IMG/VR virus record: IMGVR_UViG_3300017917_003446
Location: 32,001-96,000 of that record
Strand: one strand, 5' to 3'
Length of the DNA: 64,000 bases
Source of the DNA: a virus
The notes below the pieces were generated by a model. It was not told where the DNA came from, ran no database searches, and saw nothing but the letters and a program-made list of their open reading frames with translations. Every line of letters starts with the position of its first letter. The first letter of the stretch is position 1. The position numbers and the translations under genes were made by a program. Shown here one piece after another: positions 6,829 through 61,698 of the stretch.

Positions 6829-7638
6829 ATGAATCTAATTTGTTTTTATCATGTTTGGCCAATACGAGGTTGGGAGTTATTATATCAGCAACAAATAATG
6901 GCTTTATATACCAGTGGTTTATATAATCATCTAAAAACTATCTATGTTTGTTGTAATGGCAATATTAATCTCCCCTTTGAAAATCCAAAGATAATTCAAA
7001 GATATAACAAGAATTTTACAAATGAAAGTGATACTTTATATTCAATGTGGCAATTAAGTAACTTAGATAAAACAGCAAAAATACTTTATATACATACTAA
7101 AGGTATTAGTTATCAACTTCATCATCTTAGAAAAAATGTTGATGCTTGGAGATTGTATTTAGAATTTTACAATATACATAAGTGGAAAGACTGTGTGGAA
7201 AAATTAAATGAGTATGATATTGTGGGAACTGAATGGTCAAATTTTCCTTTAACTTATACATCTAAAGATAAACTAATTAATTTGTCTAACAACGCAGGAA
7301 TATACTTAGGTAATTTTTGGTGGGCAAATGCAAAATATATTTCAAGCTTAGATAAAGATTATTTGTTTGATTATAGTGCATCTCATAAAATTGAAGGTAT
7401 AAATATGGAAGAAAAATATAATCCGAGCGAAAACGATAAAACACGAATTCTTAGGCATAATAGTGAACTTTGGCTTGGTACAAATTCACCTAAATATTTT
7501 AGTTTTAGAAATTTAAATGAAACGCTTCTTGAAATTACACCTCATAAAAATAGTGACCCAACTTTTAAATTCCTACATAATAAATACAATGTAGGTTATG
7601 ATACTAATGCTTTAAATTGTTTGGAAACTTTTTTATGA
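6829..7638 (+). CDS. Hypothetical protein, probable glycosyltransferase-like
   Basis: YIHTKG..WR..GNFWWAN..YI..R..SELWLG motif, recurrent in phage sugar islands. Confidence 0.5.
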   Translation: MNLICFYHVWPIRGWELLYQQQIMALYTSGLYNHLKTIYVCCNGNINLPFENPKIIQRYNKNFTNESDTLYSMWQLSNLDKTAKILYIHTKGISYQLHHLRKNVDAWRLYLEFYNIHKWKDCVEKLNEYDIVGTEWSNFPLTYTSKDKLINLSNNAGIYLGNFWWANAKYISSLDKDYLFDYSASHKIEGINMEEKYNPSENDKTRILRHNSELWLGTNSPKYFSFRNLNETLLEITPHKNSDPTFKFLHNKYNVGYDTNALNCLETFL

Positions 7639-8603
7639 ATACAACATTTTTAATTGACGGTGGCGCCGGAAGAGTCATTAATTCTATACCTGCACTGGAA
7701 AAATATTATAAACTAAATCCCGAAGATGACTTTAAAGTTTTAGTATATGGGTGGGAATCTGTTTTTTGGAGCCACCCTATATTACAAAAAAGAGTATTTG
7801 GGGCTAATCAAAAAGGAAATTTTGAGCATATCATAAAAGGAACAAAAATAGTTTCACCTGAACCTTATAGAAATCATAGATTTTTTAATCAACAAATTAA
7901 TCTTGTTGAAGCATTTGATGATGAAATCAACAAAACAACCGATCACTCTGATCTAAATTATAATTGTCTTCATTTATCTGTCACTGAAATAGCAAAATCA
8001 AAAGAACACATAGAAAATGTTAAAAATCAACAAAGAAAAAATAAAATGGTGGTATTTCAGCCATTTGGGTCATCCGTTGAATTAATTAACAAGCAACCTT
8101 TTGATCGTTCTAATCGTTCTTTTGAATCATCGGATTATTTTAAAATTGTTCAATCTTTATCAAGTGACGCTATTGTTTTTTATGCTAGTTTACCTATGTT
8201 TCGTCATCCAAACGATAATATTTCAATTTCTTTTGATGAAATAGGTTCATACCATAGAACATTAATGTGTTTGATTTATCATTGTGACTATTACATAGGA
8301 TGTTGCTCAATTGGGCAACATGTAGCTAGAGCTTTTGGTAAACCAGGATTGATTGCTATGGGCGGCACTAATGAAATAAATTTTAGTTATCCGAATCATT
8401 TTACTATTTACCGTAGAAAAAATAAGGAACCTAAGTATATACCATGGAGATTATCAGATGTAGATTGTGAATTTGCGGATAGAGAAAATGAGGGATTAAT
8501 GAAATTTTCTGATGATGAACTTAAAGAAATGATTTCAATAATAAAGAAAAATATTAACTCTTCTAACACCGACAGATTTGATAGATTAGTGTCCTATGGT
8601 TAA
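7635..8603 (+). CDS. GT-B (GT9-like) glycosyltransferase
   Basis: IDGGAGRV, VFQPFG, DYYIGCCSIGQHVARAFGKP motifs. Start placed at the ATG overlapping the upstream stop. Confidence 0.55.
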   Translation: MNTTFLIDGGAGRVINSIPALEKYYKLNPEDDFKVLVYGWESVFWSHPILQKRVFGANQKGNFEHIIKGTKIVSPEPYRNHRFFNQQINLVEAFDDEINKTTDHSDLNYNCLHLSVTEIAKSKEHIENVKNQQRKNKMVVFQPFGSSVELINKQPFDRSNRSFESSDYFKIVQSLSSDAIVFYASLPMFRHPNDNISISFDEIGSYHRTLMCLIYHCDYYIGCCSIGQHVARAFGKPGLIAMGGTNEINFSYPNHFTIYRRKNKEPKYIPWRLSDVDCEFADRENEGLMKFSDDELKEMISIIKKNINSSNTDRFDRLVSYG

Positions 8604-8967
8604 TGCGCCTATATCTATTGGTGAATTGTTTGATAAAATCACTATTTTAGAGATAAAACTAAGTCAAGTGAAAAATGAAGATAAATTGAAAAATATTACT
8701 ATGGAACATAATTATTTAAAAAAAATTTCTGTTTCCATAAATACTAAGAATATAGATTATCTTATAGATAATCTAAAAGAAGTTAATATGATTCTTTGGA
8801 ATATAGAAAATAGTATTAGAGCAAAAGAAAATCTGCAAGAATTTGATTTAGAATTTATTGAAATAGCAAGAAGTGTGTACAAAAATAATGATATTCGTGC
8901 AGATATTAAGAAAAAAATAAACATGTTAGCTAATTCTTTGTTATGTGAGGAAAAAGAACATCTATGA
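8596..8967 (+). CDS. DUF6165-like small protein
   Basis: APISIGELFDKITILEIK..LW.IE..IR..FIEIARSVY..ND.RA.IK..IN..EEK. Confidence 0.7.
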   Translation: MVNAPISIGELFDKITILEIKLSQVKNEDKLKNITMEHNYLKKISVSINTKNIDYLIDNLKEVNMILWNIENSIRAKENLQEFDLEFIEIARSVYKNNDIRADIKKKINMLANSLLCEEKEHL

Positions 8968-9758
8968 AAGAATATTATTTTATATCGGGATTGCCTAGAT
9001 CAGGTTCAACCTTATTATCAGGTATTCTAAGACAAAATCCTGATTTTTATGCTGACATTGCTTCACCTTTACAAGGTTTAGTTCAAGGTATTATAAACAA
9101 TATTACAAGTTCTGAAAGTAATACAACGATACAAGAAGACCGTAGAAAGACTATTTTATATGGTCTTTTCAACGCCTTTTACGATCATGTAAATAAACCT
9201 ATAATTTTTGATTCATCTAGAGGATGGACTTCTGTTACCCCTTTACTTAAAGAACTTTTCCCTAATACAAAAATAATTTGTTGTGTTAGGGAGATATTTT
9301 GGATTTTAGATTCTTTTGAAAGAATTGCTGCTAAAAATTGTCTTTATACCAATACCCTTGTAGAAGATGTAGCCAGATCAAATATAGAATCAAGATGCCT
9401 AAGTATGATGGATGCACGAAAAGATGGTATAGTTATAATGCCATGGTATTGGTTACGAGAAGGATTATCATTAAATAGAGACATGATTCATCTGGTTGAA
9501 TATAACTCTTTGTGCAAAAATCCAGAAGAAACACTTAGAGGTATTTATAATTTCATAGGTAAAGAATATTTTGAACATGATTTTGATAATGTGGAATATG
9601 AAAATGAAACTTTTGATCGTTCTTTAAACATGAAAGATTTACATACAGTGAAACGAAAAGTAGAATGGGTTGAAAGAAAAACTATTCTGCCTGATTTTGT
9701 AATAGAACAATTTACAAAAAAAGATTTTTGGAAGAAAAAAAATATAAACTATGAATGA
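8964..9758 (+). CDS. Sulfotransferase family protein
   Basis: PAPS-binding loop GLPRSGSTLL at the N-terminus; KIICCVR; YNSLCKNPEETLRGIYNFIG. Confidence 0.85.
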   Translation: MKEYYFISGLPRSGSTLLSGILRQNPDFYADIASPLQGLVQGIINNITSSESNTTIQEDRRKTILYGLFNAFYDHVNKPIIFDSSRGWTSVTPLLKELFPNTKIICCVREIFWILDSFERIAAKNCLYTNTLVEDVARSNIESRCLSMMDARKDGIVIMPWYWLREGLSLNRDMIHLVEYNSLCKNPEETLRGIYNFIGKEYFEHDFDNVEYENETFDRSLNMKDLHTVKRKVEWVERKTILPDFVIEQFTKKDFWKKKNINYE

Positions 9759-14200: not shown

Positions 14201-17200
14201 ATTTCACTAATGCTCGTTCTTATTCTAATACTTTAGTCGCACTTAGATCAGGCAATGGTATTTCATACAACAATGTGACAGGAAATATCACATTAACAGC
14301 AACAGGTGTTACTGCCAGTACTTATGGTGGGACATCCCAAATACCTGTATTTACTGTTGATTCTTTTGGTAGATTAACCAATGCAAGTAATGTTGCAGTT
14401 GCAGGAGTAAACGCATTTACCTCTTCAGGTAATTCCTTCACTATAAGCACAGCAGCAGGTACAAGTTTCACAGCAAATATTCAACCAGATTCTATAAGAC
14501 TTGGAACAGATACAACCGGACCATATATATCAAACTTAATAGCAGGTACAGGTGTTACTTTAACAGGACTAGGTAACGAAAGCACTACACCTACAATATC
14601 AATTGGTCAAGCAGTAGATGCAACTTCAGATGTAACTTTCAAAAATATAATAATAAGTGGCAATTTAACTGTATCCGGTAATACCTCCTATATTAATACT
14701 GAAACAATTGAATTAGCTGATAATAAAATTACATTAAATTCTAATCTGACTGGTGCTCCCTCGGAAGATGCGGGATTAGTAATTAACAGAGGCACTAATG
14801 CAAATGTAGAATTAAGATGGAATGAAACTAGTGATTATTGGGAGTTTACTAACAATGGTACTAATTACTTTAAGATAGCAGTATCTACAACTGATTTAGT
14901 AGAGGGCACTAATTTATATTATACAAATACTAAAGCATACGCTAACACATTGTCTGCAATAAAAACTGGTAATGGAATAGTTTACGACAATACAGCGGGA
15001 AATATAACACTATCAGCTACCGGTGTAATAGCTGCATCATATGGAAACACTACACATCATATCGGATTGGTAGTAGATGAGCATGGTAGAATAACATCTG
15101 CTAATACAATAGCACTTACAACAGGACCTACAGGACCTCAAGGAGCGGCCGGTGTACAAGGTTCCCAAGGTAATGCTGGAGTCCAAGGAGCACAAGGTAA
15201 TGCGGGTATCCAAGGAGCACAAGGTGTTGCTGGAATACAAGGGGCACAGGGCAATGCTGGAATACAAGGGGCACAGGGTGTAGCAGGCGTACAAGGTTCC
15301 CAAGGTAATGCTGGAGTCCAAGGAGCACAAGGTAATGCGGGTATCCAAGGAGCACAAGGTGACGTAGGTGTTCAAGGTGCTGCAGGTGTACAAGGTTCTC
15401 AGGGCAATGCTGGAGTCCAAGGAGCACAGGGCGCTACGGGTCCACAGGGTGTAGCAGGCGTACAAGGTTCTCAGGGCAATGCTGGGATACAAGGTGCTAC
15501 GGGTCCACAGGGTGTAGCAGGTGTACAAGGAGCTCAAGGAGTTCAAGGCGCCACTGGTCCACAAGGATTAAATTCCTCAGATGAATTTTTCTCATCTAAT
15601 ATTACCGCAAATATTTCTATTACAGCAAATGTATGGAGAAATTTATATACTTCTAATGTAATAGAAAATGGAACTACTACAACAGGTAATGTTTATTTTA
15701 CAAATTCAAGAGCCAGACTTGCACTTACAAGTGGAAATGGTATATCATATGATTCTGCTACAGGTAATATAACTTTATCTTCAACAGATGTAGTAGCTAG
15801 CACTTATGGTGGCAATAATAGAATAATTCCCAGATTCACCGTAGATAGTTTAGGTAGAATTACATCTGCATCCAATACGACATTAGATGATATTGTACTA
15901 GGTACACAAACATCAGGTAATTATGTACAAAATGTTTTACCTGGAACAGGTGTTACTATATCAGGTACTCCGGGTGAATCAAGAGATGCTACAATTTCCA
16001 TTGGTCAGGCGGTATCTACTACCTCAGATGTTACCTTTGCAAATGTTACAGTAACAGGTAATTTATTAGTACAAGGCAATGCTGTTGAATTTGCAGCAAA
16101 TACTTTAGTAATTAATGATCCATTGATTCAGGTAGGTAAAAATCCTACAGGAGATGCTGTAGATTTAGGATTCTTTGGACACTATCTTACAGGATCGGTG
16201 GAAAGACATGCTGGATTATTTAGAGATGCAACTGACGGTAAATTTAAACTATTCGCAAACCTTGATCCAGAGCCAGTAACTATAGTTGATACAGCTAATA
16301 CATCTTACTACAAAGCATATTTTGAAGTTGGCACAATCGATTCAGCGAATGGCTCATTTACAGGAAATGTAACAACTGGTAATGTAAGTGGAACTAGAGG
16401 AGACTTCGTATATTTTGATGGTATTATGGATTCAGGTACCATTAATAACGCAGTTGTTGTAGAAAAATCGCCGGTAGTAACCGTCACATTAAGCGGAAAC
16501 ATAACAGGATCAGCATCTGCAATACTATCAAATTTAGCAAGTAATACAGTAACAGTTACAACTACACTAGAAAATACTGGAGTATCGGCTACAACCTATG
16601 GTGGATCTTCTAAAGTCCCTGTACTTGTAATTGATGCTAAAGGTAGAATAACGTCAGCATCAAATGTAAATGTTGCAGGTGTTACGTCATTTAGTGCTTC
16701 GGGTAATACATTCACTATAGCTACTGCTGATGGTGGATCATTTAGTGCAAATATTCAACAAAATTCAGTAAGATTAGGAACTGATACTACAGGTGACTTT
16801 GTAGGTAACGTACTAGCAGGGACAGGTTTAGTAGCAAGTGGACAAAGTGGTGAATATGCTAATGTAACATTAACACTAGCTTCTTCTGGTGTAGTAGCAT
16901 CAACGTATGGAAATGCTACTATTCAAAGTGTTATCACAGTTGATACTTATGGTAGAATAACTTCTGCAGCAAATGTTACTGCTCAAGTATCTAATACCAA
17001 TATTTTAGGAAACATTGCATCATCCCAACTTAATCCTACAGGAGTAACTGCTGCTAACTACGGAAATAATTCACATCATATTGGATTAGTTATAGATCAA
17101 CAAGGAAGAATAACTTCTGCAAATATGATACCTTTCTCTGCAGGTCCCACAGGACCTCAGGGAGCAGCAGGAGCCCAAGGCGCAACCGGTGCTCAAGGCG

Positions 17201-17790
17201 CCAATGGATCAAATGGTTCACCTGGACCTAACGGAGCTCAAGGTCCTGCAGGTGTTCAAGGTGCAACAGGTGCTCAAGGCGCCAATGGATCAAATGGTTC
17301 ACCTGGACCTAACGGAGCTCAAGGCCCTGCAGGTGCTCAAGGCCCAACAGGACCAACGGGGCCGCAAGGTGCTACTGGTCCTCAGGGTGCTTCGTCAGGA
17401 GGCAATTTATTATTGAATATATCATTGGGTGTTGGTACTCCAGCATCAGGTACTCAAGGTGAAATACGTGCTACTAATAACATTACTGCTTATTATTCTG
17501 ATGATAGATTAAAAACTAGAATAAATAATATTCCTAATGCTTTAGATAAAATTAAATCATTGTCGGGATTTTATTTCACAGCTAACGATGTAGCAAAATC
17601 TTTAGGATATCAAGGTGAACTTCAGGTGGGTGTATCTGCTCAGGAAATTCAAAGAGTTCTACCTGAAGTAGTAGCGCCTGCCCCTATAGATGATAAATAC
17701 TTAACAGTTAGATATGAGAAAATTATTCCGCTACTTATTGAAGGTATCAAGGAACTAGAAATAAGAATAAGTGCATTAGAAAACAAATAA
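11242..17790 (+). CDS. Long tail fibre protein with internal repeats, collagen segments and C-terminal intramolecular chaperone (peptidase S74)
   Basis: N-terminal IQHKRSS..GKIP..L..GEIAIN..D..IY; repeated YG..TVD.FGR.TSASN modules; Gly-X-Y tracts; C-terminal YYSDDRLK..YEKIIPLLIEGIKEL. Alternative GTG start at 11218. Confidence 0.85.
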   Translation: MANTIQHKRSSVLGKIPTSANLAVGEIAINFADKLIYTKNTDGNVIVIAYGTLERFTGNIIPSQNVTYTLGNSTHRFSNLFLSGSTINLGGASIKYEGGFFKVLDENGNPAKTLIYTANIFESGNTTSGNVYFTNNRARAALTSGNSISYDSTTGNITLSPSGVTAASYGNASLIPSLTVDQFGRVTRVSNVSVAGVNNFTASGNAFTIQTSAGTSFTANIQLNSIRLGTDTTGDYVSNLTAGTGVVLSNLGGEGINPTIAIGQNVATTADVTFSNITATGNIIASNISGSQTNTTIIAGSYAFSFDNAGNLTAPTAINTGTINARSWNNLYTNNVIEGTNLYFTNARSYANTLTAIKTGNGIVYNSTTGNITLNPTGVTATTYGGSSNVSVITVDQFGRITSASNAAVAGVSSFNASGNSFTIATSAGSTFIANIQPNSVRLGTDTTGDYVANLVAGAGVILTNLGGEGISPTISIGQNVDTHADVTFANITITGNLSVLGNAVQFNANTLVIDDPLIQVGANNNLSDSVDLGFFGHYKGGTPSVERHAGLFRDASDGNFKLFANLDPTPDVVVDTSNVSFNFANLIVNYLTGNVLGTVNTLSNFSTSNLSEGTNLYFTNARVYSNVAPLLTTANVSEVTNLYFTNARVYAAVTGNLASKANVTDLTTSNIAEGTNLYFTNARVYSNIAPLLTTANVLELTNLYFTNARVYGTVTGNLALKANIVDLTTSNIAEGANLYFTNDRVYSNIAPLLTTANILEVNNLYFTNARSYANTLIALRAGNGINYNNVTGNITLTATGVSSATYGGSANIPVVTIDAFGRISSASNVAVAGVSSFTSSGNSFTISTGAGTSFTANIQPDSIRLGTDTTGPYVANLVAGTGVTLSGLGNEGTTPTINIGQSVAATSDVVFANITATGNVTVLGNVNVGNLIGNFTNTTITAGSYVFTFDNAGNVTIPTALNANTINATFWNNLYTNNVVESVNLYFTNARSYSNTLVALRSGNGISYNNVTGNITLTATGVTASTYGGTSQIPVFTVDSFGRLTNASNVAVAGVNAFTSSGNSFTISTAAGTSFTANIQPDSIRLGTDTTGPYISNLIAGTGVTLTGLGNESTTPTISIGQAVDATSDVTFKNIIISGNLTVSGNTSYINTETIELADNKITLNSNLTGAPSEDAGLVINRGTNANVELRWNETSDYWEFTNNGTNYFKIAVSTTDLVEGTNLYYTNTKAYANTLSAIKTGNGIVYDNTAGNITLSATGVIAASYGNTTHHIGLVVDEHGRITSANTIALTTGPTGPQGAAGVQGSQGNAGVQGAQGNAGIQGAQGVAGIQGAQGNAGIQGAQGVAGVQGSQGNAGVQGAQGNAGIQGAQGDVGVQGAAGVQGSQGNAGVQGAQGATGPQGVAGVQGSQGNAGIQGATGPQGVAGVQGAQGVQGATGPQGLNSSDEFFSSNITANISITANVWRNLYTSNVIENGTTTTGNVYFTNSRARLALTSGNGISYDSATGNITLSSTDVVASTYGGNNRIIPRFTVDSLGRITSASNTTLDDIVLGTQTSGNYVQNVLPGTGVTISGTPGESRDATISIGQAVSTTSDVTFANVTVTGNLLVQGNAVEFAANTLVINDPLIQVGKNPTGDAVDLGFFGHYLTGSVERHAGLFRDATDGKFKLFANLDPEPVTIVDTANTSYYKAYFEVGTIDSANGSFTGNVTTGNVSGTRGDFVYFDGIMDSGTINNAVVVEKSPVVTVTLSGNITGSASAILSNLASNTVTVTTTLENTGVSATTYGGSSKVPVLVIDAKGRITSASNVNVAGVTSFSASGNTFTIATADGGSFSANIQQNSVRLGTDTTGDFVGNVLAGTGLVASGQSGEYANVTLTLASSGVVASTYGNATIQSVITVDTYGRITSAANVTAQVSNTNILGNIASSQLNPTGVTAANYGNNSHHIGLVIDQQGRITSANMIPFSAGPTGPQGAAGAQGATGAQGANGSNGSPGPNGAQGPAGVQGATGAQGANGSNGSPGPNGAQGPAGAQGPTGPTGPQGATGPQGASSGGNLLLNISLGVGTPASGTQGEIRATNNITAYYSDDRLKTRINNIPNALDKIKSLSGFYFTANDVAKSLGYQGELQVGVSAQEIQRVLPEVVAPAPIDDKYLTVRYEKIIPLLIEGIKELEIRISALENK
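13050..13570 (+). repeat. Tandem peptide repeats (TT.N..E..NLYFTNAR.Y) within the tail fibre
   Basis: Seven consecutive NLYFTN(A/D)R units in the translation, with further copies elsewhere in the gene. Confidence 0.8.
15124..15567 (+). repeat. Collagen-like Gly-X-Y repeat tract
   Basis: GPTGPQGAAGVQGSQGNAGVQGAQG... with repeated caaggagcacaaggt DNA units. Confidence 0.9.
17143..17391 (+). repeat. Second collagen-like tract containing an 81-bp tandem duplication
   Basis: ggtgctcaaggcgccaatggatcaaatggttcacctggacctaacggagctcaagg occurs at 17188 and 17269. Confidence 0.85.
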
Positions 17791-38846: not shown

Positions 38847-39310
38847 AAACCAAATTAAATTACAAATTTATTAAATTAACAAATGGTGATGATATAATTT
38901 GTACTTTGGATTCAGATACAACCAAATTAAAACAGAACGAAAAATTATTTGTTGTTGATCCTGTCTTGGTTGTTAGAATGAGATATCCTAGAGGTATGTC
39001 TATGGTAGAAGGATACGTATTTCAACCATGGGTAAGTTATGCTGCTCAATCTGTTTTTGAAATACCTGCATGGAGTATAGTAACATCTGCAGATTTAGAA
39101 GATAAAATTAAAGAGACTTATATCAAATATATTACTGAAGAAGTGTCTACCAATGTAGTACAAAAAACAACTGAAGATGATCCGCAAATATCTAAGGAAG
39201 AAGCAATAAGAATTGCAGACATGCTTAGTTCAATTACAATGTCACAAAAGGATGAAGAAGATGCCGAGGAAGAAACAAGTAGTCCCCGCGGGCGACGCAC
39301 TCTCCATTGA
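38843..39310 (+). CDS. Conserved hypothetical protein between uvsW and gp55
   Basis: IKL.NGDDII..P..PW pattern at a conserved T4-like position. Confidence 0.6.
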   Translation: MKTKLNYKFIKLTNGDDIICTLDSDTTKLKQNEKLFVVDPVLVVRMRYPRGMSMVEGYVFQPWVSYAAQSVFEIPAWSIVTSADLEDKIKETYIKYITEEVSTNVVQKTTEDDPQISKEEAIRIADMLSSITMSQKDEEDAEEETSSPRGRRTLH

Positions 39311-39863
39311 AGAACCTATTCCTGTTTCTTCTCATTATGTAGATAATAAGAAATTTCTACAAGCATTAATTGAGTATAGAGCAAGTATAGAAAGTGCAAA
39401 AGCTGCAGGTAAAGAACAACCACAGGTGCCTAATTATATAGGTGAATGTTTTATAAAAATAGCCACTCATTTATCATATAAATCTAACTTTATTAATTAC
39501 ACTTTTAAAGATGATATGATTAGCGATGGTATTGAGAATTGTCTCACAGCTGTTGCTAAATTTGATCCAGCAAAATCATCTAATCCTTTCGCATATTATA
39601 CTCAGATAATTTATTTTGCCTTTTTGCGTAGAATTCAAAAAGAAAAGAAAATGCAGGCAACTAAATATAAGATGATTGAATCTATGGATTTGGATGCTAT
39701 TATTACTCAAGAACATGATAGTGGAGAATTTAATAATCAATTCTTAGATTATCTAAAGAAACAATTGGATCAAGTAGATATTGATAAACGAGTAGTTAAT
39801 CTACCTAAAAAGAACAAATTAGCTGAGGAAGAAACCAAAAGTACACTTGATCTAGATGATTAG
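39261..39863 (+). CDS. gp55: Late transcription sigma factor gp55
   Basis: HYVDNK.F..YIGECF.KIA.HLS...NF.NY..DMISDGIENC..NPFAYYTQI.YFAF.RRI.KEK. Start inferred at MPRKK. Confidence 0.93.
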   Translation: MPRKKQVVPAGDALSIEEPIPVSSHYVDNKKFLQALIEYRASIESAKAAGKEQPQVPNYIGECFIKIATHLSYKSNFINYTFKDDMISDGIENCLTAVAKFDPAKSSNPFAYYTQIIYFAFLRRIQKEKKMQATKYKMIESMDLDAIITQEHDSGEFNNQFLDYLKKQLDQVDIDKRVVNLPKKNKLAEEETKSTLDLDD

Positions 39864-39901: not shown

Positions 39902-40747
39902 ATGAGCAAAATTAAAATATCGGAGTTATTTTATTCTATTCAAGGTGAAGGCCGATTCATGGGTGTGCCTTCAGTCTTTTTAAGGACATTTGGCTGTAAC
40001 TTTACTTGTGACGGTTTCGGTAAACCTAAAGGAGAAAAGAGTGACGAGCGAGACATCATTGCACAACACGCGGATCAGTACAAAAATTATAAATCTTTGC
40101 CTTTGGTTACTACAGGCTGTGATAGTTACGCTAGTTGGGATGTTAGGTTCAAGCATCTTAGCCCTGTTGTGTCTATTGATGTCATTGTTGATGCCATTCT
40201 ACATATGCTACCTCATGGCAAGTGGACAAGTGAGCATCTCGTTATTACAGGAGGCGAACCACTCCTTGGGTGGCAAAGAGCGTACCCTGATCTCCTCTCG
40301 CATCCCGATATGGTCAATCTTCAAGAGCTCACGTTCGAGACCAATGGAACACAAAAACTAGAAGCAAAATTTTCTGAATATCTTAAGACTCATTGGCGTA
40401 AAGGTTGGGATAAGCTTACTTTTAGTGTAAGTCCCAAGCTAAGTGTTAGTGGCGAAAAATGGGAAGATGCCATACAACCTGAAGTAATTGAACAGTATCA
40501 GGAACATGGATATGTCTATTTAAAGTTTGTAGTTGCAGATGAAAAAGATGTAGCAGAGGCAGCTATGGCGGTTGAATGTTATAGAGATAATGGATTTACA
40601 GGTCCAGTTTATCTAATGCCTATTGGTGGAGTAGAATCAGTTTATGCTATGAATAATAAAAATGTTGCATTGATGGCAATGAAGAAAGGCTGGCGTTATA
40701 GTGATAGACTTCAGGTGCCGTTATTTAAAAATGAGTGGGGAACTTAA
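39902..40747 (+). CDS. queE: 7-carboxy-7-deazaguanine synthase QueE (radical SAM)
   Basis: ELFYSIQGEG..G.PSVFLR.FGC, ITGGEPL, FETNGT, SVSPKL; adjacent to folE. Confidence 0.9.
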   Translation: MSKIKISELFYSIQGEGRFMGVPSVFLRTFGCNFTCDGFGKPKGEKSDERDIIAQHADQYKNYKSLPLVTTGCDSYASWDVRFKHLSPVVSIDVIVDAILHMLPHGKWTSEHLVITGGEPLLGWQRAYPDLLSHPDMVNLQELTFETNGTQKLEAKFSEYLKTHWRKGWDKLTFSVSPKLSVSGEKWEDAIQPEVIEQYQEHGYVYLKFVVADEKDVAEAAMAVECYRDNGFTGPVYLMPIGGVESVYAMNNKNVALMAMKKGWRYSDRLQVPLFKNEWGT

Positions 40748-41481
40748 TGAATAGTAAACTTGTAGAAGAAGCACCGTATCATCCTGGATATGAGGGTGCC
40801 GTTTTTGGGCGCCCAATGAGTCAAGTGATTCGTGAACGTATAAAGGAAGGACAGGCTAGATTTTTTGCCAATGATAATATTTCACCTTTTATTCATAATG
40901 AAGATGAGATTGAATTGCTTGTAGATGAAGTAGCAGATAAGTTTCAACAAGTTTTACATTCTTTGTGTATTGATACTCTTAACGATCATAATACACAGGA
41001 CACAGCACGTCGTGTGGCTAAAATGTTTATAAAAGAAACATTTAGGGGTCGCTATGCTAATCCGCCTAAAGTTACAGCATTTCCTAATGTAACAGAATAT
41101 GATGAATTATATGTGACAGGTCCTATTACTATAAGGAGTACTTGTGCCCATCATTTTCAAAACATTGTTGGTAAAGCATATATTGGCGTATTTCCGGGCA
41201 AGAATGTTATCGGCCTTAGTAAGTTTAATCGTATCACGGATTGGATCGCTTCTCGCCCGCAGATTCAAGAAGAAATGACTGTTCAAATTGCTGATGCTAT
41301 TCAGAAAGAAACCGAAGCAGAAGGTGTTGCAGTATTGATCCAAGCAGAACATCATTGTATGACGCATAGAGGTGTAAAGGAACATGAATCAGATATGACT
41401 ACATCTGTTATGCGAGGCGCATTCAGAGAACATCCTCATTTGAAACAAGAGTTTTTTAACATCATTCATAAAATGAAATGA
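40747..41481 (+). CDS. folE: GTP cyclohydrolase I
   Basis: T..RVAKM, STCAHHF, IGLSKF.R, RPQIQE, AEHHCM..RGV. Confidence 0.95.
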   Translation: MNSKLVEEAPYHPGYEGAVFGRPMSQVIRERIKEGQARFFANDNISPFIHNEDEIELLVDEVADKFQQVLHSLCIDTLNDHNTQDTARRVAKMFIKETFRGRYANPPKVTAFPNVTEYDELYVTGPITIRSTCAHHFQNIVGKAYIGVFPGKNVIGLSKFNRITDWIASRPQIQEEMTVQIADAIQKETEAEGVAVLIQAEHHCMTHRGVKEHESDMTTSVMRGAFREHPHLKQEFFNIIHKMK

Positions 41482-42851
41482 AACTATATAGCAAACGAAT
41501 AGCATTTTGTATTAGTGATCAACATCTTGTATCTCACGGTGGTATAGGTCAATTTGCCAAAGGATTTACTGAAATGGCAAATAGACTAGGTTGGAAAGTA
41601 GATATAATTATGGACAAGGCCCCAACAGGAGGTTTTAGTTCTGTTGTTGAGGGATTTGGAGCTACATTAGTCTATCCAACAACTTCAAATTCTTATTCGG
41701 AACATACTGGCACATTTGCATTTAATGATTCAGTAAATTTTGAGAAGATAATAAATTTTAGACGAGCATTAATGTATGCTATGTCTATGAATCTTTATGA
41801 TATGATTGTGTGCAATTCTATGGAGTCTATGCCCGCAGCATTCTCTCTTGATCTCGGTAGAAATATCCCTGTGGTATTTTATACACATGAAGAGTCTATG
41901 GTCTTTAGAGATACTAGAAAATTTAAAGGCGTATTTACAGAAAGTTGTAATGAATTTTTTAATAGATTAATGACGGTAGAACATGCTTTCGTTGGCACAC
42001 AATCGCAAAGAAATGTTGATGAATTAAAGTCGAATGGTAGTAACAATGCAACTTTGCTTCCAATGCCTATGTCAGAGCGAGATCTACTTACTCCTAACTA
42101 TGAAGAAAGAACAGGTGTATTATACATAGGTAGATGGGAAGATAGAAAAAATCCAGAAGCATTTTTAGATGTAATAAAGAAGACTGGATTGCCTGCAAAA
42201 ATTATTACAAATAGTAACGGAAAAAAGAAATTTGAAATACGTCTTGCTGAATTAGGTATTACAGATTATGAATTAAAAGCCGGGATAGTAGGTAAGGAGA
42301 AAGTTGATTTTATAAAATCTGCAAGAGTGCACTTTAATCCTTCACTAAGAGAAAATTATCCATTTACATTCTTTGAATGTATGGGGCATATGCCAAGTAT
42401 CGTTATAGATAAATCTGAATGGGTAACTAATTTCGATAAGAAATATTATGCTAGAATTAAAACAGAAGAAGTACCTGCATTCATTAAAAAGATATATGAA
42501 AATATGAATCCTAAAGAATGGTATGATACTGGCGCTTTAGAATACGTAAAACAGTTAGATGAGAACACTGCAGATAAATGGGTAAACTTTTTGGACTCAT
42601 ACTCGCCTTCATCTATATCTAAATCTGATTCGGCAAAAATTAATACATATGATACAGTTAAATATTTGGATTTCATAAAAGAATTAAATAGAAAGTCTTT
42701 GGCTATCGAAGACATTAAAAGTGTATTGACAAATAAGCATAAGTATAATATAATCTATACTGATGACAACACCTATCTATCAAAAGACAAACACTTTGTC
42801 CCCAACGAAAAGACTAGTAATAGTGCTAGTCTAGAGGATTTATTTGCATGA
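41478..42851 (+). CDS. GT-B (GT4-like) glycosyltransferase with C-terminal SLEDLFA motif
   Basis: HGGIGQF, VLYIGRWEDRKNP, NPSLRENYPFTFFE (ExxxxxxxE-type GT4 motif). Confidence 0.8.
   Translation: MKLYSKRIAFCISDQHLVSHGGIGQFAKGFTEMANRLGWKVDIIMDKAPTGGFSSVVEGFGATLVYPTTSNSYSEHTGTFAFNDSVNFEKIINFRRALMYAMSMNLYDMIVCNSMESMPAAFSLDLGRNIPVVFYTHEESMVFRDTRKFKGVFTESCNEFFNRLMTVEHAFVGTQSQRNVDELKSNGSNNATLLPMPMSERDLLTPNYEERTGVLYIGRWEDRKNPEAFLDVIKKTGLPAKIITNSNGKKKFEIRLAELGITDYELKAGIVGKEKVDFIKSARVHFNPSLRENYPFTFFECMGHMPSIVIDKSEWVTNFDKKYYARIKTEEVPAFIKKIYENMNPKEWYDTGALEYVKQLDENTADKWVNFLDSYSPSSISKSDSAKINTYDTVKYLDFIKELNRKSLAIEDIKSVLTNKHKYNIIYTDDNTYLSKDKHFVPNEKTSNSASLEDLFA
42726..42754 (+). promoter_or_regulatory. Consensus sigma70 promoter embedded in the GT gene, upstream of dpdA
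   Basis: TTGACA (42726)-17 nt-TATAAT (42749). Confidence 0.7.
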
Positions 42852-44131
42852 AGATTTTCGAATATGTGATTTCCGGTCCTGCGTATCTGCGCCTTGGTGC
42901 AGAACAATGTAACGACCCGGAAACACTTGACATGATTAATACTCTTATTTCAAAGACATGCCATAATCAAAATAATCATACCTTCTCACTTTTGTATAAC
43001 GGTTTTACAGAAAAGAACTTTGGTGCTAAACTACAAAAGTACAGACCTGCTATTAAACAGATTCACGCAGACTCAGGCGGTTTGCAGATTATAACTCGAG
43101 GATTACAAAATACTCCTGAGGTAAGAGATAAAGTATATACCAATCAAGGCACTTATGCAGATATAGGTATGGCTTTTGATGAGATTCCTGTTAAGGCTAC
43201 TCAGGATGGTAAATCATCTAAGATAGATACCAAGCGTAGATTCTTTGACAGAGAAAATTTTGATGCGTATGCTACTCAAACAGGCAAAAATGTTCGAGCA
43301 CAAATAGAAAAATTTGCAGAACTTAAATCTAATTGTAGACCATTTGTAATTATACATGGCGCATCCCATGATACATATCAACAATGGGCGGAGGCAATTT
43401 TAAGAGAAGTATCTGAACCATTACATGATAGAATCGGTGGTGTAGCTATGGGATCAGCTGCACTTGGTATGGGGCAGTTAGAAGATGTAAAAAGAGCATT
43501 CTATGTTACTCTAATGCCTTTTAGTAAACCATTTCATCTACACGTACTTGGTGTTGGTGCATTAAGACGTATGCTTCCTTATTTACTATTCAGTCAAACA
43601 GGTTTATATGATGGCATTGATATCTCTTATGATTCTACTACTCATTCTATGTCCTTGGATAATGGTCTCTTTTATTTCTCACACTATAAAAAGACTCCGG
43701 GCTCCGCGTATGGCGGTACGTCGGTTAAAATGGGACGAGAATACTCAAACATTTATAGAACAGTGACAGAAGAAATTAATAATGTTTGTGGTACTACTTA
43801 CGAGCCAGAAGAATATCACAAGTTAATGAACTATCAGGTAACTGCCTATTTAGAAAAAGGTGGTAAGTTCATAGATGTTATGAGAGCAAGATTAGCGTTT
43901 ATTCTAACTAATGTACATAACTTTACTAAAGATGTTTCAGAACTTACTCAATCTAAAGAACAATTCTTAAAATTTGCGAGAGACAAGGGTTGTGAAAATG
44001 AATATGCTACATTATTTGAAGTGAAAAATTTAACAGACTTTCTACATTGGGAAAAGCATGTGGGATGTCATATGGAATCAGAATCAGTTGCAGATAAACC
44101 ACCAGTATCGTTAGAGGATCTATTCGCATGA
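42848..44131 (+). CDS. dpdA: DpdA-like tRNA-guanine-transglycosylase-fold protein (7-deazaguanine DNA insertion)
   Basis: TGT-fold motifs ADSGGLQI, MAFDEIP, HLHVLGVG, SYDSTT; located within a folE/queD/queE cluster. Confidence 0.8.
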   Translation: MKIFEYVISGPAYLRLGAEQCNDPETLDMINTLISKTCHNQNNHTFSLLYNGFTEKNFGAKLQKYRPAIKQIHADSGGLQIITRGLQNTPEVRDKVYTNQGTYADIGMAFDEIPVKATQDGKSSKIDTKRRFFDRENFDAYATQTGKNVRAQIEKFAELKSNCRPFVIIHGASHDTYQQWAEAILREVSEPLHDRIGGVAMGSAALGMGQLEDVKRAFYVTLMPFSKPFHLHVLGVGALRRMLPYLLFSQTGLYDGIDISYDSTTHSMSLDNGLFYFSHYKKTPGSAYGGTSVKMGREYSNIYRTVTEEINNVCGTTYEPEEYHKLMNYQVTAYLEKGGKFIDVMRARLAFILTNVHNFTKDVSELTQSKEQFLKFARDKGCENEYATLFEVKNLTDFLHWEKHVGCHMESESVADKPPVSLEDLFA

Positions 44132-44511
44132 TTATTAAACAAGACGTCAGACCAAGAACAGAAACCTATATTAAAATTAGAACTGAATTTGAAGGATATC
44201 ATCGTTATCCTATTGCTAGTCAAATTGATCCTCGTATTGCCTTTCTTGAAAATGAACACAGGCATATGTTTAAGGTTGAGGTTAAAATCTCTGTATCACA
44301 TCTTGATAGAGAGCTAGAGTTCTTTTTAGTTAAATGGGCACTGCAAGATTTTATCAAAGGCGGCAATATGAATCATAAATCTTGTGAAATGATTGCTACA
44401 GATATTCTTGAACAACATCTTATTCCAAAGTATGGGCAAAGATTTTATGAGATTGTAGTATCAGAAGATGGTGAGTCTGACGGTATCGTAACATATTATC
44501 CGGGTGAGTAA
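44128..44511 (+). CDS. QueD paralog (T-fold), DpdL-like
   Basis: FEGYH..LENEHRHMF.VEV..RELEF..SCEMIA..VSEDGE. LxxxHRHxF replaces the QueD CxxxHG motif. Confidence 0.65.
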   Translation: MIIKQDVRPRTETYIKIRTEFEGYHRYPIASQIDPRIAFLENEHRHMFKVEVKISVSHLDRELEFFLVKWALQDFIKGGNMNHKSCEMIATDILEQHLIPKYGQRFYEIVVSEDGESDGIVTYYPGE

Positions 44512-45677
44512 TGGGCAAACTATATTATATGGGGCTGGAGCCTTACGAGGGCCGTTACACTTTGCAGTTACAGCATTGGAGTGAGGAAGTATTCAAGCGT
44601 AGAGGTATTGAATATGAGGTGATTCATGGTGAGTTACTTGATACTTCAAAGTCTATTGTTACGGGGCAAGTATTAGATGCCCATGGTCGCAGCTATTATT
44701 CTTTGACACAGATGGCAAAACTTGTAGCAAAAATGAAGGCGGGTGAAGTAACTTGGGAAGATACTATTTTCTTTGAGGATATGTTTACTCCTGGTATGGA
44801 AGCATTGCCTTACATCATGGATCAGACTACTCCAGAATTTTGCCCTAATGTGTGGGTAAGATGTTTGGCACAAACTATTGATCCTGACGACTTTCTTCAT
44901 GTGTGGCACATGGAAGAATGGATGAGTAAATATGAGCATATGGTCAATACATTTGTCAAAGGTGTTTTGGCATCTAATGAAGAAATGGTTGCTCATATGA
45001 AAATTGCAGGTTGGAATGTTCCTATTCATAATATTTCTGGTCTAGCATTTGGTAAAGAAGAAGTACAATCTAGAGTATCTGTTAGAAAAGACTTTCATAA
45101 TCGTAAAAGGCGTGTATGTTTTGCTGCTAGATTTGATCAGGAAAAGCAACCTAATTTCTTTATGGATATGATCGAAAGATTAAAACCATATCATGATATA
45201 GAGTTTTGTGTCCTATCAGGTGGACCTTTGCGTAGTAATGATGAATTGATACTTCAAAGGGCAAGAGAACTTAAACAAAAAGGTATGTTAACTATTCATG
45301 AGAACTTGAAGAAGAATGAGTATTATGAAATACTAGCAGATTCCCGAGTATTGTTTAATTGTGCTCTACAGGATTGGGTATCTAATACAGCATCAGAAGC
45401 AGACGCACTTGGTACTAATTGTTTATATCCTGCGTATCGTTCTTTTCCTGAGACTTTCGCAAATGATTCTGAGTGTTTGTATATTCCTTGGTCTTGTGAA
45501 GATGCTGACACTAAATTAATTAAATTGCTTAATAAGCCAAGGCAAAATTTAGGCAAATTATCTGATTGGACAAATGGCACTATTGATCGTTGCTTAGACA
45601 TAATGTATGATGAATCAGGTCAATGGTATAGAGGCGGCATAAGGTATCGTAATCATGTCACAGAATCTAAATACTAA
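44511..45677 (+). CDS. GT-B glycosyltransferase
   Basis: FAARFDQEKQP, LFNCALQD..SNT..EADALG..YP.YRSFPE. Confidence 0.7.
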   Translation: MGKLYYMGLEPYEGRYTLQLQHWSEEVFKRRGIEYEVIHGELLDTSKSIVTGQVLDAHGRSYYSLTQMAKLVAKMKAGEVTWEDTIFFEDMFTPGMEALPYIMDQTTPEFCPNVWVRCLAQTIDPDDFLHVWHMEEWMSKYEHMVNTFVKGVLASNEEMVAHMKIAGWNVPIHNISGLAFGKEEVQSRVSVRKDFHNRKRRVCFAARFDQEKQPNFFMDMIERLKPYHDIEFCVLSGGPLRSNDELILQRARELKQKGMLTIHENLKKNEYYEILADSRVLFNCALQDWVSNTASEADALGTNCLYPAYRSFPETFANDSECLYIPWSCEDADTKLIKLLNKPRQNLGKLSDWTNGTIDRCLDIMYDESGQWYRGGIRYRNHVTESKY

Positions 45678-46706: not shown

Positions 46707-47216
46707 ATGGCTTTAATCAACCTATCAAGACCATACAAATACACTAGTACAAAAGAATACCATGATGCATTTCCGTGTGCATATAGACAATGGCGCGCCG
46801 ATAGTCATTGTAACTTAATACATGGTTATAGTTTTTCAATGAAGTTTTATTTTGGCACAGATCATTTAGATGTTCGTAATTGGGCGGCAGATTATGGTGG
46901 TCTAAAAGAACTAAAGAAAATACTTGAAGATCAGTTCGATCACACTTTGCTAGTAGCACAAGATGATCCAGAGCTTGAAACTTTTAAATTATTACAAGAA
47001 AAGAATCTAGCTAAACTAACTATTCTACCAAGACTAGGTTGTGAAGGTTTGGCAGATATGTTATACAAATATGTAAATGGTGTTTATATCCCAGATATGT
47101 GGGGTCCTGGTGAAGCAGAAAGACTTTGGTGTTATCGTGTAGAAGTTAGAGAGACGCAAAGTAATATGGCATTCAGAGAAGGGCACCGAGAATGGAACGA
47201 GGATTTGTTTAGCTAA
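46707..47216 (+). CDS. queD: 6-carboxy-5,6,7,8-tetrahydropterin synthase QueD
   Basis: CAYRQWRADSHCNLIHGYS, DYGGLK.LK..L..FDHT, GCE.LA, VEVRET..N.A. Confidence 0.88.
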   Translation: MALINLSRPYKYTSTKEYHDAFPCAYRQWRADSHCNLIHGYSFSMKFYFGTDHLDVRNWAADYGGLKELKKILEDQFDHTLLVAQDDPELETFKLLQEKNLAKLTILPRLGCEGLADMLYKYVNGVYIPDMWGPGEAERLWCYRVEVRETQSNMAFREGHREWNEDLFS

Positions 47217-60763: not shown

Positions 60764-61055
60764 TTACAAGTATAACGAAGATAAACTTATACGAGAGCTA
60801 CAAGACTATGTAGACTCTACCTACGGACAACACTATGCTCAGGGAAAAATACAAACTACAGAATTCATTATTGATAATGGTCATGGTATTGGTCATACTG
60901 TCGGTAATATAATTAAGTATGCCCAAAGATATGGAAAGAAAGCCGGAAGGAATAGGAAAGACATACTAAAGATATTACACTATACTTTAATAATGCTATA
61001 TGTACATGATATTGAAACAGCCAATGAAAAGGAACTAGATGATGCAGATCAGTAA
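60735..61055 (+). CDS. DUF3310-like conserved phage protein
   Basis: YKYNE..Y.D.TY.QHY..GNIIKYAQRYGKK.G.NRKD.LK..HY. Confidence 0.7.
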   Translation: MTYIIDKIINYKYNEDKLIRELQDYVDSTYGQHYAQGKIQTTEFIIDNGHGIGHTVGNIIKYAQRYGKKAGRNRKDILKILHYTLIMLYVHDIETANEKELDDADQ

Positions 61056-61698
61056 AGAAACAATTGACATTCTAAAGAATTTTGCGAGTATCAATAGCAA
61101 TATTCTTATTCGTAAGGGCAAAACTCTTTCTACAATTAGTACAGCTAAAAGTATTTTTGGTCGTGCTACAGTAGCAGAAGATTTTCCTGTGGAAGTACCC
61201 ATCTATGATTTAAACTCTCTGTTAGCATTGCTAACACTGATGGAAAATCAGAATGTAGAATTCGGTGATAAGTCCTTAACTATCTCTAAAGATGGCGGTA
61301 AGTTTGAATACTTTTATTCTAACCCATCTGTTATTGTTGCAGCACCAGATAAAAGTATTGAATTGGATAGTCATTTCCAATTTAAACTCACAGCTGAAGA
61401 TGTTCAAATGATTATGAAAGCGGCTGCTATTACCTCGGCGCCTACAATTTCAGTTGCTTGTAAACATCAACAAGTAGTACTTACTGTAGGCGATAAGAAG
61501 TTTGACACTGCTAATACTTATAAAAAGATTATTGGTCCAGGGATCGAGGACTTTGAATGTCATATCTCAGTAGAGAATTTTAAAGTTATTCCTGATGCAT
61601 ATTCTATTACTATTTCTAAAAAGAAGTTCTTGCATCTAAAGCATGAAACTAAAAGCATAGAATACTTTATTGCGATGGAACCAGATTCTGTGGTATGA
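61039..61698 (+). CDS. gp45: DNA polymerase sliding clamp gp45
   Basis: S.ET..ILKNFA.IN..I..G..L.T.S..IYDL..L..Y.IA.E.DS; synteny with gp44/62. Confidence 0.92.
   Translation: MMQISKETIDILKNFASINSNILIRKGKTLSTISTAKSIFGRATVAEDFPVEVPIYDLNSLLALLTLMENQNVEFGDKSLTISKDGGKFEYFYSNPSVIVAAPDKSIELDSHFQFKLTAEDVQMIMKAAAITSAPTISVACKHQQVVLTVGDKKFDTANTYKKIIGPGIEDFECHISVENFKVIPDAYSITISKKKFLHLKHETKSIEYFIAMEPDSVV

Follow-up and report, generated by a model that had tools for sequence, protein, structure and literature searches.

Two adjoining enzymes encoded in a 64,000-nucleotide stretch of DNA from a T4-like phage (the window; bases 32001-96000 of the 115,472-bp IMG/VR record IMGVR_UViG_3300017917_003446, which is 59% complete) end in the same short peptide. 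One is a DpdA2-like DNA guanine transglycosylase (DpdA) and the other a GT-B glycosyltransferase (GT1). We think it likely that the last seven residues of both proteins are a T4-type clamp-binding peptide, [ST]-L-E-x-L-F-x-COOH, as found on the DNA polymerase (gp43) of this lineage. That these tails bind the sliding clamp gp45, how their action is timed relative to the replication fork, and that GT1 acts on DNA are points we infer from sequence.

GT1 ends in ...NSASLEDLFA (last seven codons agt cta gag gat tta ttt gca) and DpdA ends in ...KPPVSLEDLFA (tcg tta gag gat cta ttc gca), at the positions given by the first-pass annotation. The seven shared residues use different codons, and all five nucleotide differences are synonymous, so the two tails are not a DNA repeat and their likeness lies at the protein level, as that annotation had proposed. 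Among all six-frame open reading frames (ORFs) of at least 50 amino acids in the record, LEDLF occurs twice, both times at these C-termini. The pattern [ST]L[DE].[LF]F ending one or two residues before a stop codon was likewise observed twice, against about 0.01 expected per genome, which makes the pair more than a chance occurrence.

The motif is strongly conserved among relatives. Across 69 viral contigs carrying DpdA homologs of 73-94% identity, L-E-x-L-F is invariant in 36 unique DpdA and 35 unique GT1 tail contexts. Residues L422, E423, L425 and F426 of DpdA do not vary in 41 homologs, nor do L452, E453, L455 and F456 of GT1 in 37 homologs (50-87% identity), although their codons vary synonymously (TTA/CTA/CTT, GAG/GAA, TTA/CTA/TTG/CTG and TTT/TTC). 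The x position, between E and L, is variable (D, E, N, G, S or A), and the linker before the fixed motif differs by clade, examples for DpdA being DKPPSS, AVAPSS, HQPRMS, EVAPST, IIAPSS and TQPPVS.

In the window, each tail includes a GAGGA that precedes the following ATG by 8-13 nt, and each stop codon shares an ATGA with the start of the following gene, so the first-pass annotation had cautioned that translational coupling could dictate the E, the D and the final Ala. The caution is justified for the last residue only: where the overlap exists, this residue varies only among codons ending in A, and since its codon must end in A it looks constrained by the overlap. The E is not forced. L-E-x-L-F is kept in three DpdA contexts with a taa stop, a spacer and no Shine-Dalgarno-like run, in two GT1 contexts without the ATGA overlap, and in the 25 of 35 GT1 tails that read ttagaaagt (LES) and thus lack GAGG, GGAG and AGGA. 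The tail is also kept in the isolates BUCT-ZZ01, Yut2 and BUDD, where dpdA does not overlap the next gene. The motif therefore survives where the constraint is absent, a situation in which its loss would have counted against a clamp-binding role.

The record itself contains no gp43, as judged from a Pfam DNA_pol_B search and a reading of all ORFs, and the polymerase tail was therefore taken from relatives. There gp43 ends in ...PQATLEGLF[SG] in five records (DpdA 75-81% identical) and in ...KATLEGLFA in three (DpdA about 92% identical). The comparison with the gp43 C-terminus that had been proposed from the window alone thus yields TLEGLF[ASG], the same type of tail as SLEDLFA; the final Ala in the closest relatives is followed by a taa stop, with no overlap. 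The complete 202,665-bp genome of one relative (G003) has 1024 six-frame ORFs, and the only three [ST]LE.LF matches among them are the C-termini of gp43, DpdA and GT1. A whole-genome census of ACP17, BUDD and Yut2 found the C-terminal motif on gp43 and DpdA only, with 0.01-0.03 occurrences expected per genome. In one close relative (L142-L144, G006:C1:37586-40339), the gp43 match is fragmented, with TAA stops and an intervening 310-aa ORF, and these features suggest that a mobile element or intron is inserted in gene 43.

The tails also follow the polymerase across more distant lineages (Table 1). In BUCT-ZZ01, the Leu-to-Phe change (FF) is present in gp43, DpdA and the glycosyltransferase alike. 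ACP17 gp43 and DpdA share LD[DE]LFE, and those of BUDD share LE.LFG. At the L/F position, the tail matches the phage's own gp43 in all five motif-bearing lineages. The DpdA2 of the KVP40 type (L097, KVP40 71308-72687) is tail-less, though KVP40 gp43 carries the motif.

Table 1. C-terminal motifs of gp43, DpdA and GT1 in other phages
Phage	gp43	DpdA	GT1
BUCT-ZZ01 (DpdA 39% identical)	TLDDFFS	SLDSFFD	SLEDFFND
ACP17	SLDDLFE	TLDELFE	not applicable
BUDD	SLESLFG	SLEELFG	not applicable
Yut2	SLEDLFGW	SLDDLFG	not applicable
pf16	SLEDFFS	TLDLMCA (degenerate)	not applicable
KVP40	TLESFFG	none	not applicable

Searching 1.84 billion representatives with a profile retrieved 433 members of the DpdA2-like family, and tails were scored in those 142 of the best 150 that are full-length, each a 50%-identity representative. 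The strict motif is present in 39 of these 142. Under looser definitions, 105 (74%) to 121 (85%) of them are tailed, versus 3.7-7.6% of background ORFs.

The proposed docking partner is encoded in the same window. By profile search it matches RB69 gp45 over the full length (1b77/1b8h, E 9e-25), and T4 gp45 (1czd) as well. In T4, the tails of gp43 (ASLDFLFG), gp55 (SLDFLYEAND) and gp33 (NTLDFLL), read from NC_000866, fit the pattern [ST]LDFL[FYL], as the first-pass annotation had stated; they bind gp45, are interchangeable and sit on divergent linkers (PMC2988020). The window tails share the spacing of the T4 sequence L-D-F-L-F. They do not match the bacterial beta-clamp motif QL[SD]LF, since S-L-E-D-L-F has L-x-x-L-F spacing and no Gln.

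The assignment of the two enzymes draws on homology and predicted structure. The 427-aa DpdA had no Pfam hit, and by tblastn it is 31.8% identical to DpdA2 of Vibrio phage VH7D (E 3e-49), the VH7D and KVP40 homologs together falling at 31-32%. A profile built from the DpdA alignment had no match among PDB sequences, and it was the predicted fold that placed the protein: its AlphaFold2 model (mean predicted local distance difference test, pLDDT, 83) matched the tRNA-guanine transglycosylase (TGT) structure 7a4k (Foldseek E 2e-8, probability 1.00) and also 7ui4, a bacterial DpdA. The homolog alignment contains invariant columns of Asp, Ser and His, identified as alignment positions. A short helix is predicted at residues 422-426, that is, at the motif.

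GT1 falls below the curated cut-offs in its Pfam GT1/GT4 matches. Its AlphaFold2 model (pLDDT 86) has the two-Rossmann GT-B fold, with GT4-type enzymes as top Foldseek matches (E 6e-12), and adds an extra C-terminal domain and a floppy tail (residues 448-457, pLDDT below 50), with a short helix again predicted at the motif. The position of the gene beside dpdA and the clamp-type tail make DNA, in the form of the modified base, the probable acceptor. A cyanobacterial tetrahydrobiopterin glucosyltransferase (9v0l, rank 33) is among the structural neighbors of GT1 and, since FolE and PTPS-family genes are adjacent, a pterin acceptor instead of DNA is a remote alternative.

We suggest that a flexible, variable linker and the tail would tether DpdA and GT1 to gp45 clamps loaded on phage DNA, from which the enzymes could scan and modify freshly made duplex. 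Base exchange would come first, probably followed by glycosylation, and both could take place either close behind the advancing fork or at clamps that stay on the DNA afterwards. Much more tentatively, the gp45 trimer may serve as a three-place tool belt that holds the polymerase, DpdA and GT1 at once or one shortly after another, which would make the two-step hypermodification co-replicative. If so, the tail would be needed for dense modification. Such an arrangement would also explain why ACP17 dpdA and dpdL, of a tailed type, gave no product in E. coli (PMC10516641), where the phage clamp is missing, and why tail-less DpdA2 of the KVP40 type modifies less than 0.1% of G. As ACP17 DpdA carries the tail, the missing clamp is, as speculation, one possible reason for that failure.

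Several observations weigh against a clamp-binding tail. The polymerase tail used in the comparison is that of relatives, the record being without gp43. Two gp45-encoding lineages do not fit: DpdA2 of the KVP40 type ends in FPAFKEQE and pf16 DpdA in TLDLMCA. The BUDD homolog of GT1, located away from dpdA, was checked and has no tail. The tail of the DpdA model has a pLDDT of 70-79 and, at that confidence, may be partly packed on its own domain. gp55, a known clamp client in T4, has a looser tail in this lineage and not the exact motif. Loosely similar ends also arise in unrelated proteins, such as a baseplate hub protein that ends in GLQSFFV or GLETFFA. Finally, a 2025 preprint did not reproduce the reported interaction of gp45 with T4 alpha-glucosyltransferase, the sole published case of a DNA-modifying enzyme on this clamp; it found no co-purification, using C-terminally His-tagged enzymes (bioRxiv 10.64898/2025.12.06.692756).

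The gp55 tails of this lineage (IDLL, LDLDD, VDFF and MDFL) are hydrophobic-acidic and not of the gp43 type, and in BUCT-ZZ01 gp55 (8799-9458) the sequence SLEKFF stands 30 residues before an acidic end. From this variation and the internal placement in BUCT-ZZ01, the sigma-factor clamp epitope appears looser and differently placed than the polymerase type. The baseplate hub protein (phrog_150, 231-236 aa; 7066-7761 on the minus strand of the record, outside the window, and 7844-8554 in BUCT-ZZ01) was considered as a fourth client and rejected; its end, though conserved, is probably a chance look-alike. A looser C-terminal pattern search of the record, G003 and BUCT-ZZ01 for gp33-like or other clients gave nothing convincing. 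In G003, a 342-aa protein (135508-136536) ends in NLEKFFRGML, a loose match with four residues after it.

Could QueD, which ends in ...WNEDLFS, be a third client, which would keep precursor synthesis at the clamp as well? The first-pass annotation had pointed to the likeness, and the ending itself is real: E-D-L-F stands at the very end of the protein, the record has four occurrences of [DE]DLF of which three are C-terminal and within this gene cluster, and close homologs keep an E-x-L-[FLI] end. The resemblance goes no further, as Asn replaces the invariant first Leu and the tail is conserved only in homologs of 88-97% identity. Others end in QENLLD, NEVLL or NEILI, those at 59-64% identity in HREDNEF.. 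and still others in AIYEG, and the QueD tails of ACP17 and BUCT-ZZ01 have no motif. The substrate of QueD, moreover, is a soluble pterin and not DNA. Given the missing Leu and the lack of conservation beyond close relatives, NEDLFS is probably a chance look-alike unrelated to the clamp tails, and we consider a QueD client unlikely.

The sharing of a sequence with gp43 would also be expected if the tails docked on another partner of the polymerase, such as a replisome component (gp32 or the clamp loader) or a chaperone. More than one gp45 site has been reported for the T4 gp43 tail, a face pocket and the open subunit interface, and the details are unsettled (PMC2988020). Against another partner, crystal structure and biochemistry identify gp45 as what exactly this polymerase tail binds in T4 and RB69, the window gp45 is a full-length homolog of those clamps, and PIP-type clamp-binding cores have the same L-x-x-[LF]-F spacing. 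We regard a different partner as very unlikely.

The tail might instead serve the enzymes themselves, for instance as a degradation tag or in oligomerization, autoinhibition or stability, and would then resemble the polymerase tail by convergence. The pLDDT of the DpdA tail would allow it to pack on the catalytic domain, and DpdA2 of the KVP40 type works in E. coli without such a tail. However, two unrelated folds, TGT-like and GT-B, share the tail, it follows the polymerase's own variant (LF or FF) across lineages, no other protein carries it in several genomes, and in GT1 it is predicted to be disordered. A role internal to the enzymes therefore seems to us improbable. Least tenable is the idea that the motif is a by-product of translational coupling, with GAGGA as Shine-Dalgarno sequence and the ATGA overlap, or of a DNA-level duplication of gene ends: despite the GAGGA, the overlaps and the A-ending last codons, it is refuted for L, E, L and F by the contexts without overlap or Shine-Dalgarno-like run, the differing codons behind fixed residues and the same tail on a gp43 whose stop codon is taa. 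The overlap may at most have influenced which residue comes last.

A clamp-binding tail on DpdA and GT1 thus remains the reading we favor, and both genes lie in an operon for 7-deazaguanine synthesis that brings together FolE, QueD, QueE-like and DpdL-like genes (Table 2), along with a second glycosyltransferase (GT2) and an epimerase. The QueD paralog that follows dpdA bears the published DpdL signature LxxxHRHxF (PMC10516641). QueC was not found in the record nor in three complete relatives. With QueC absent and the DpdL signature present, the base inserted is probably 7-deazaguanine or 7-carboxy-7-deazaguanine (CDG), and not preQ0. Neither GT2, whose tails end in ..SKY in 48 homologs, nor the DpdL-like protein has a clamp-type tail. 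A tail-less GT2-like gene directly adjoins dpdA and dpdL in ACP17 (84803-85831), BUDD (16337-17494), BUCT-ZZ01 and G003 (about 120618-121691), and the three genes look like a conserved module across distant lineages.

Table 2. Features of the window discussed in the text
Feature	Position in window	Strand	Basis or remark
gp55 late sigma factor, ends in STLDLDD	39213..39863	+	Pfam Sigma70_r2
QueE-like protein	39902-40747	+	ORF; homologous QueE annotated in BUCT-ZZ01; role in 7-deazaguanine precursor supply
FolE	40735-41481	+	ORF; Pfam GTP_cyclohydroI; role in 7-deazaguanine precursor supply
GT1, GT-B (GT4-like) glycosyltransferase, 457 aa	41478..42851	+	ORF, AlphaFold2 model, Foldseek
GT1 C-terminal peptide S-L-E-D-L-F-A, putative gp45-binding motif	42828..42848	+	
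DpdA2-like DNA guanine transglycosylase, 427 aa	42848..44131	+	tblastn to VH7D DpdA2, AlphaFold2 model, Foldseek
Variable linker from DpdA catalytic domain to tail (about residues 405-420)	44060..44107	+	differs among homologs
DpdA C-terminal peptide S-L-E-D-L-F-A, putative gp45-binding motif	44108..44128	+	
DpdL-like QueD paralog	44128-44511	+	motif LENEHRHMF
GT2	44511-45677	+	without tail
QueD (PTPS family), ends in NEDLFS	46707..47216	+	Pfam PTPS
gp45 sliding clamp, proposed docking partner	61039..61698	+	Pfam gp45-slide_C and profile match

Phage 7-deazaguanine modification has been described as a post-replicative base exchange (PMC10516641), and the literature gives no account of how the enzyme reaches the whole genome fast enough to counter restriction. 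In full-text literature searches, no publication connecting DpdA with a sliding clamp was found. A clamp tail on DpdA and the adjoining glycosyltransferase offers a testable answer, namely that the enzymes are delivered by the replication clamp. It also suggests a remedy for failed heterologous reconstitutions, the co-expression of gp45 and its loader, and a search handle for more clamp-borne DNA-modifying enzymes. Tests are feasible, since cultured phages with the tail exist (ACP17, BUDD, Yut2 and BUCT-ZZ01). The tail may be linked to modification density: the KVP40 type is tail-less, and the modification published for phages with DpdA2 is less than 0.1% of G.

The closest precedents for the tails are gp43, gp55 and gp33 of T4 and RB69 (PDB 1b8h). 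In both cases a hydrophobic-acidic peptide with the spacing [ST]-L-[DE]-x-[LF]-[FYL] stands at the extreme C-terminus behind a variable linker, and the phage encodes a gp45-type clamp. The T4 and RB69 clients are the polymerase and transcription factors, whereas the proposed clients in the window are DNA-modifying enzymes, a base-exchange transglycosylase and a glycosyltransferase. Position 4 of the motif is Phe in the T4 tails and small or acidic (D, E, S or G) in this lineage.

T4 DNA ligase is, like the window enzymes, a DNA enzyme other than the polymerase with a copy of the gp43 tail. Its clamp binding was predicted from this copy and then proven by size-exclusion chromatography, isothermal titration calorimetry and crystallography, the loop EPEGLDFLFD binding the face pocket of each gp45 subunit with a dissociation constant of 10.7 uM (PMC6212786; PDB 6drt). 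The ligase motif lies in an internal loop of an enzyme of core replication; the window motif is C-terminal, on enzymes of an accessory anti-restriction modification pathway.

For the chemistry, the nearest relatives are DpdA2 of VH7D and nt-1, homologous to the window DpdA (about 31% identity), which insert preQ0 or preQ1 into DNA. Insertion is low, at less than 0.1% of G, and is called post-replicative, with the clamp unmentioned (PMC10516641). Members of the KVP40 type lack the tail that the window DpdA carries.

The idea of a phage DNA glycosyltransferase riding the clamp, concomitant with replication, is the one raised for T4 alpha-glucosyltransferase by the reported interaction that the 2025 preprint cites and re-tested. 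T4 alpha-glucosyltransferase ends in ...FDIITK and has no clamp motif, whereas GT1 of the window has a conserved motif of the polymerase type; if GT1 does bind gp45, its tail would back, from sequence, a proposal that is contested in the case of the T4 enzyme. In eukaryotes, PIP-box clients of PCNA such as the maintenance methyltransferase DNMT1 are DNA-marking enzymes recruited to newly replicated DNA by a short clamp-binding peptide. The PIP core has the spacing h-x-x-a-a, to be compared with L-x-x-L-F here and L-x-x-F-F in BUCT-ZZ01. The window tails lack the leading Gln, their clamp is a phage trimer, and the chemistry would be base exchange and glycosylation, not methylation. Should the tails act as we propose, DpdA and GT1 would be a phage counterpart of these eukaryotic clamp-recruited DNA-marking enzymes.

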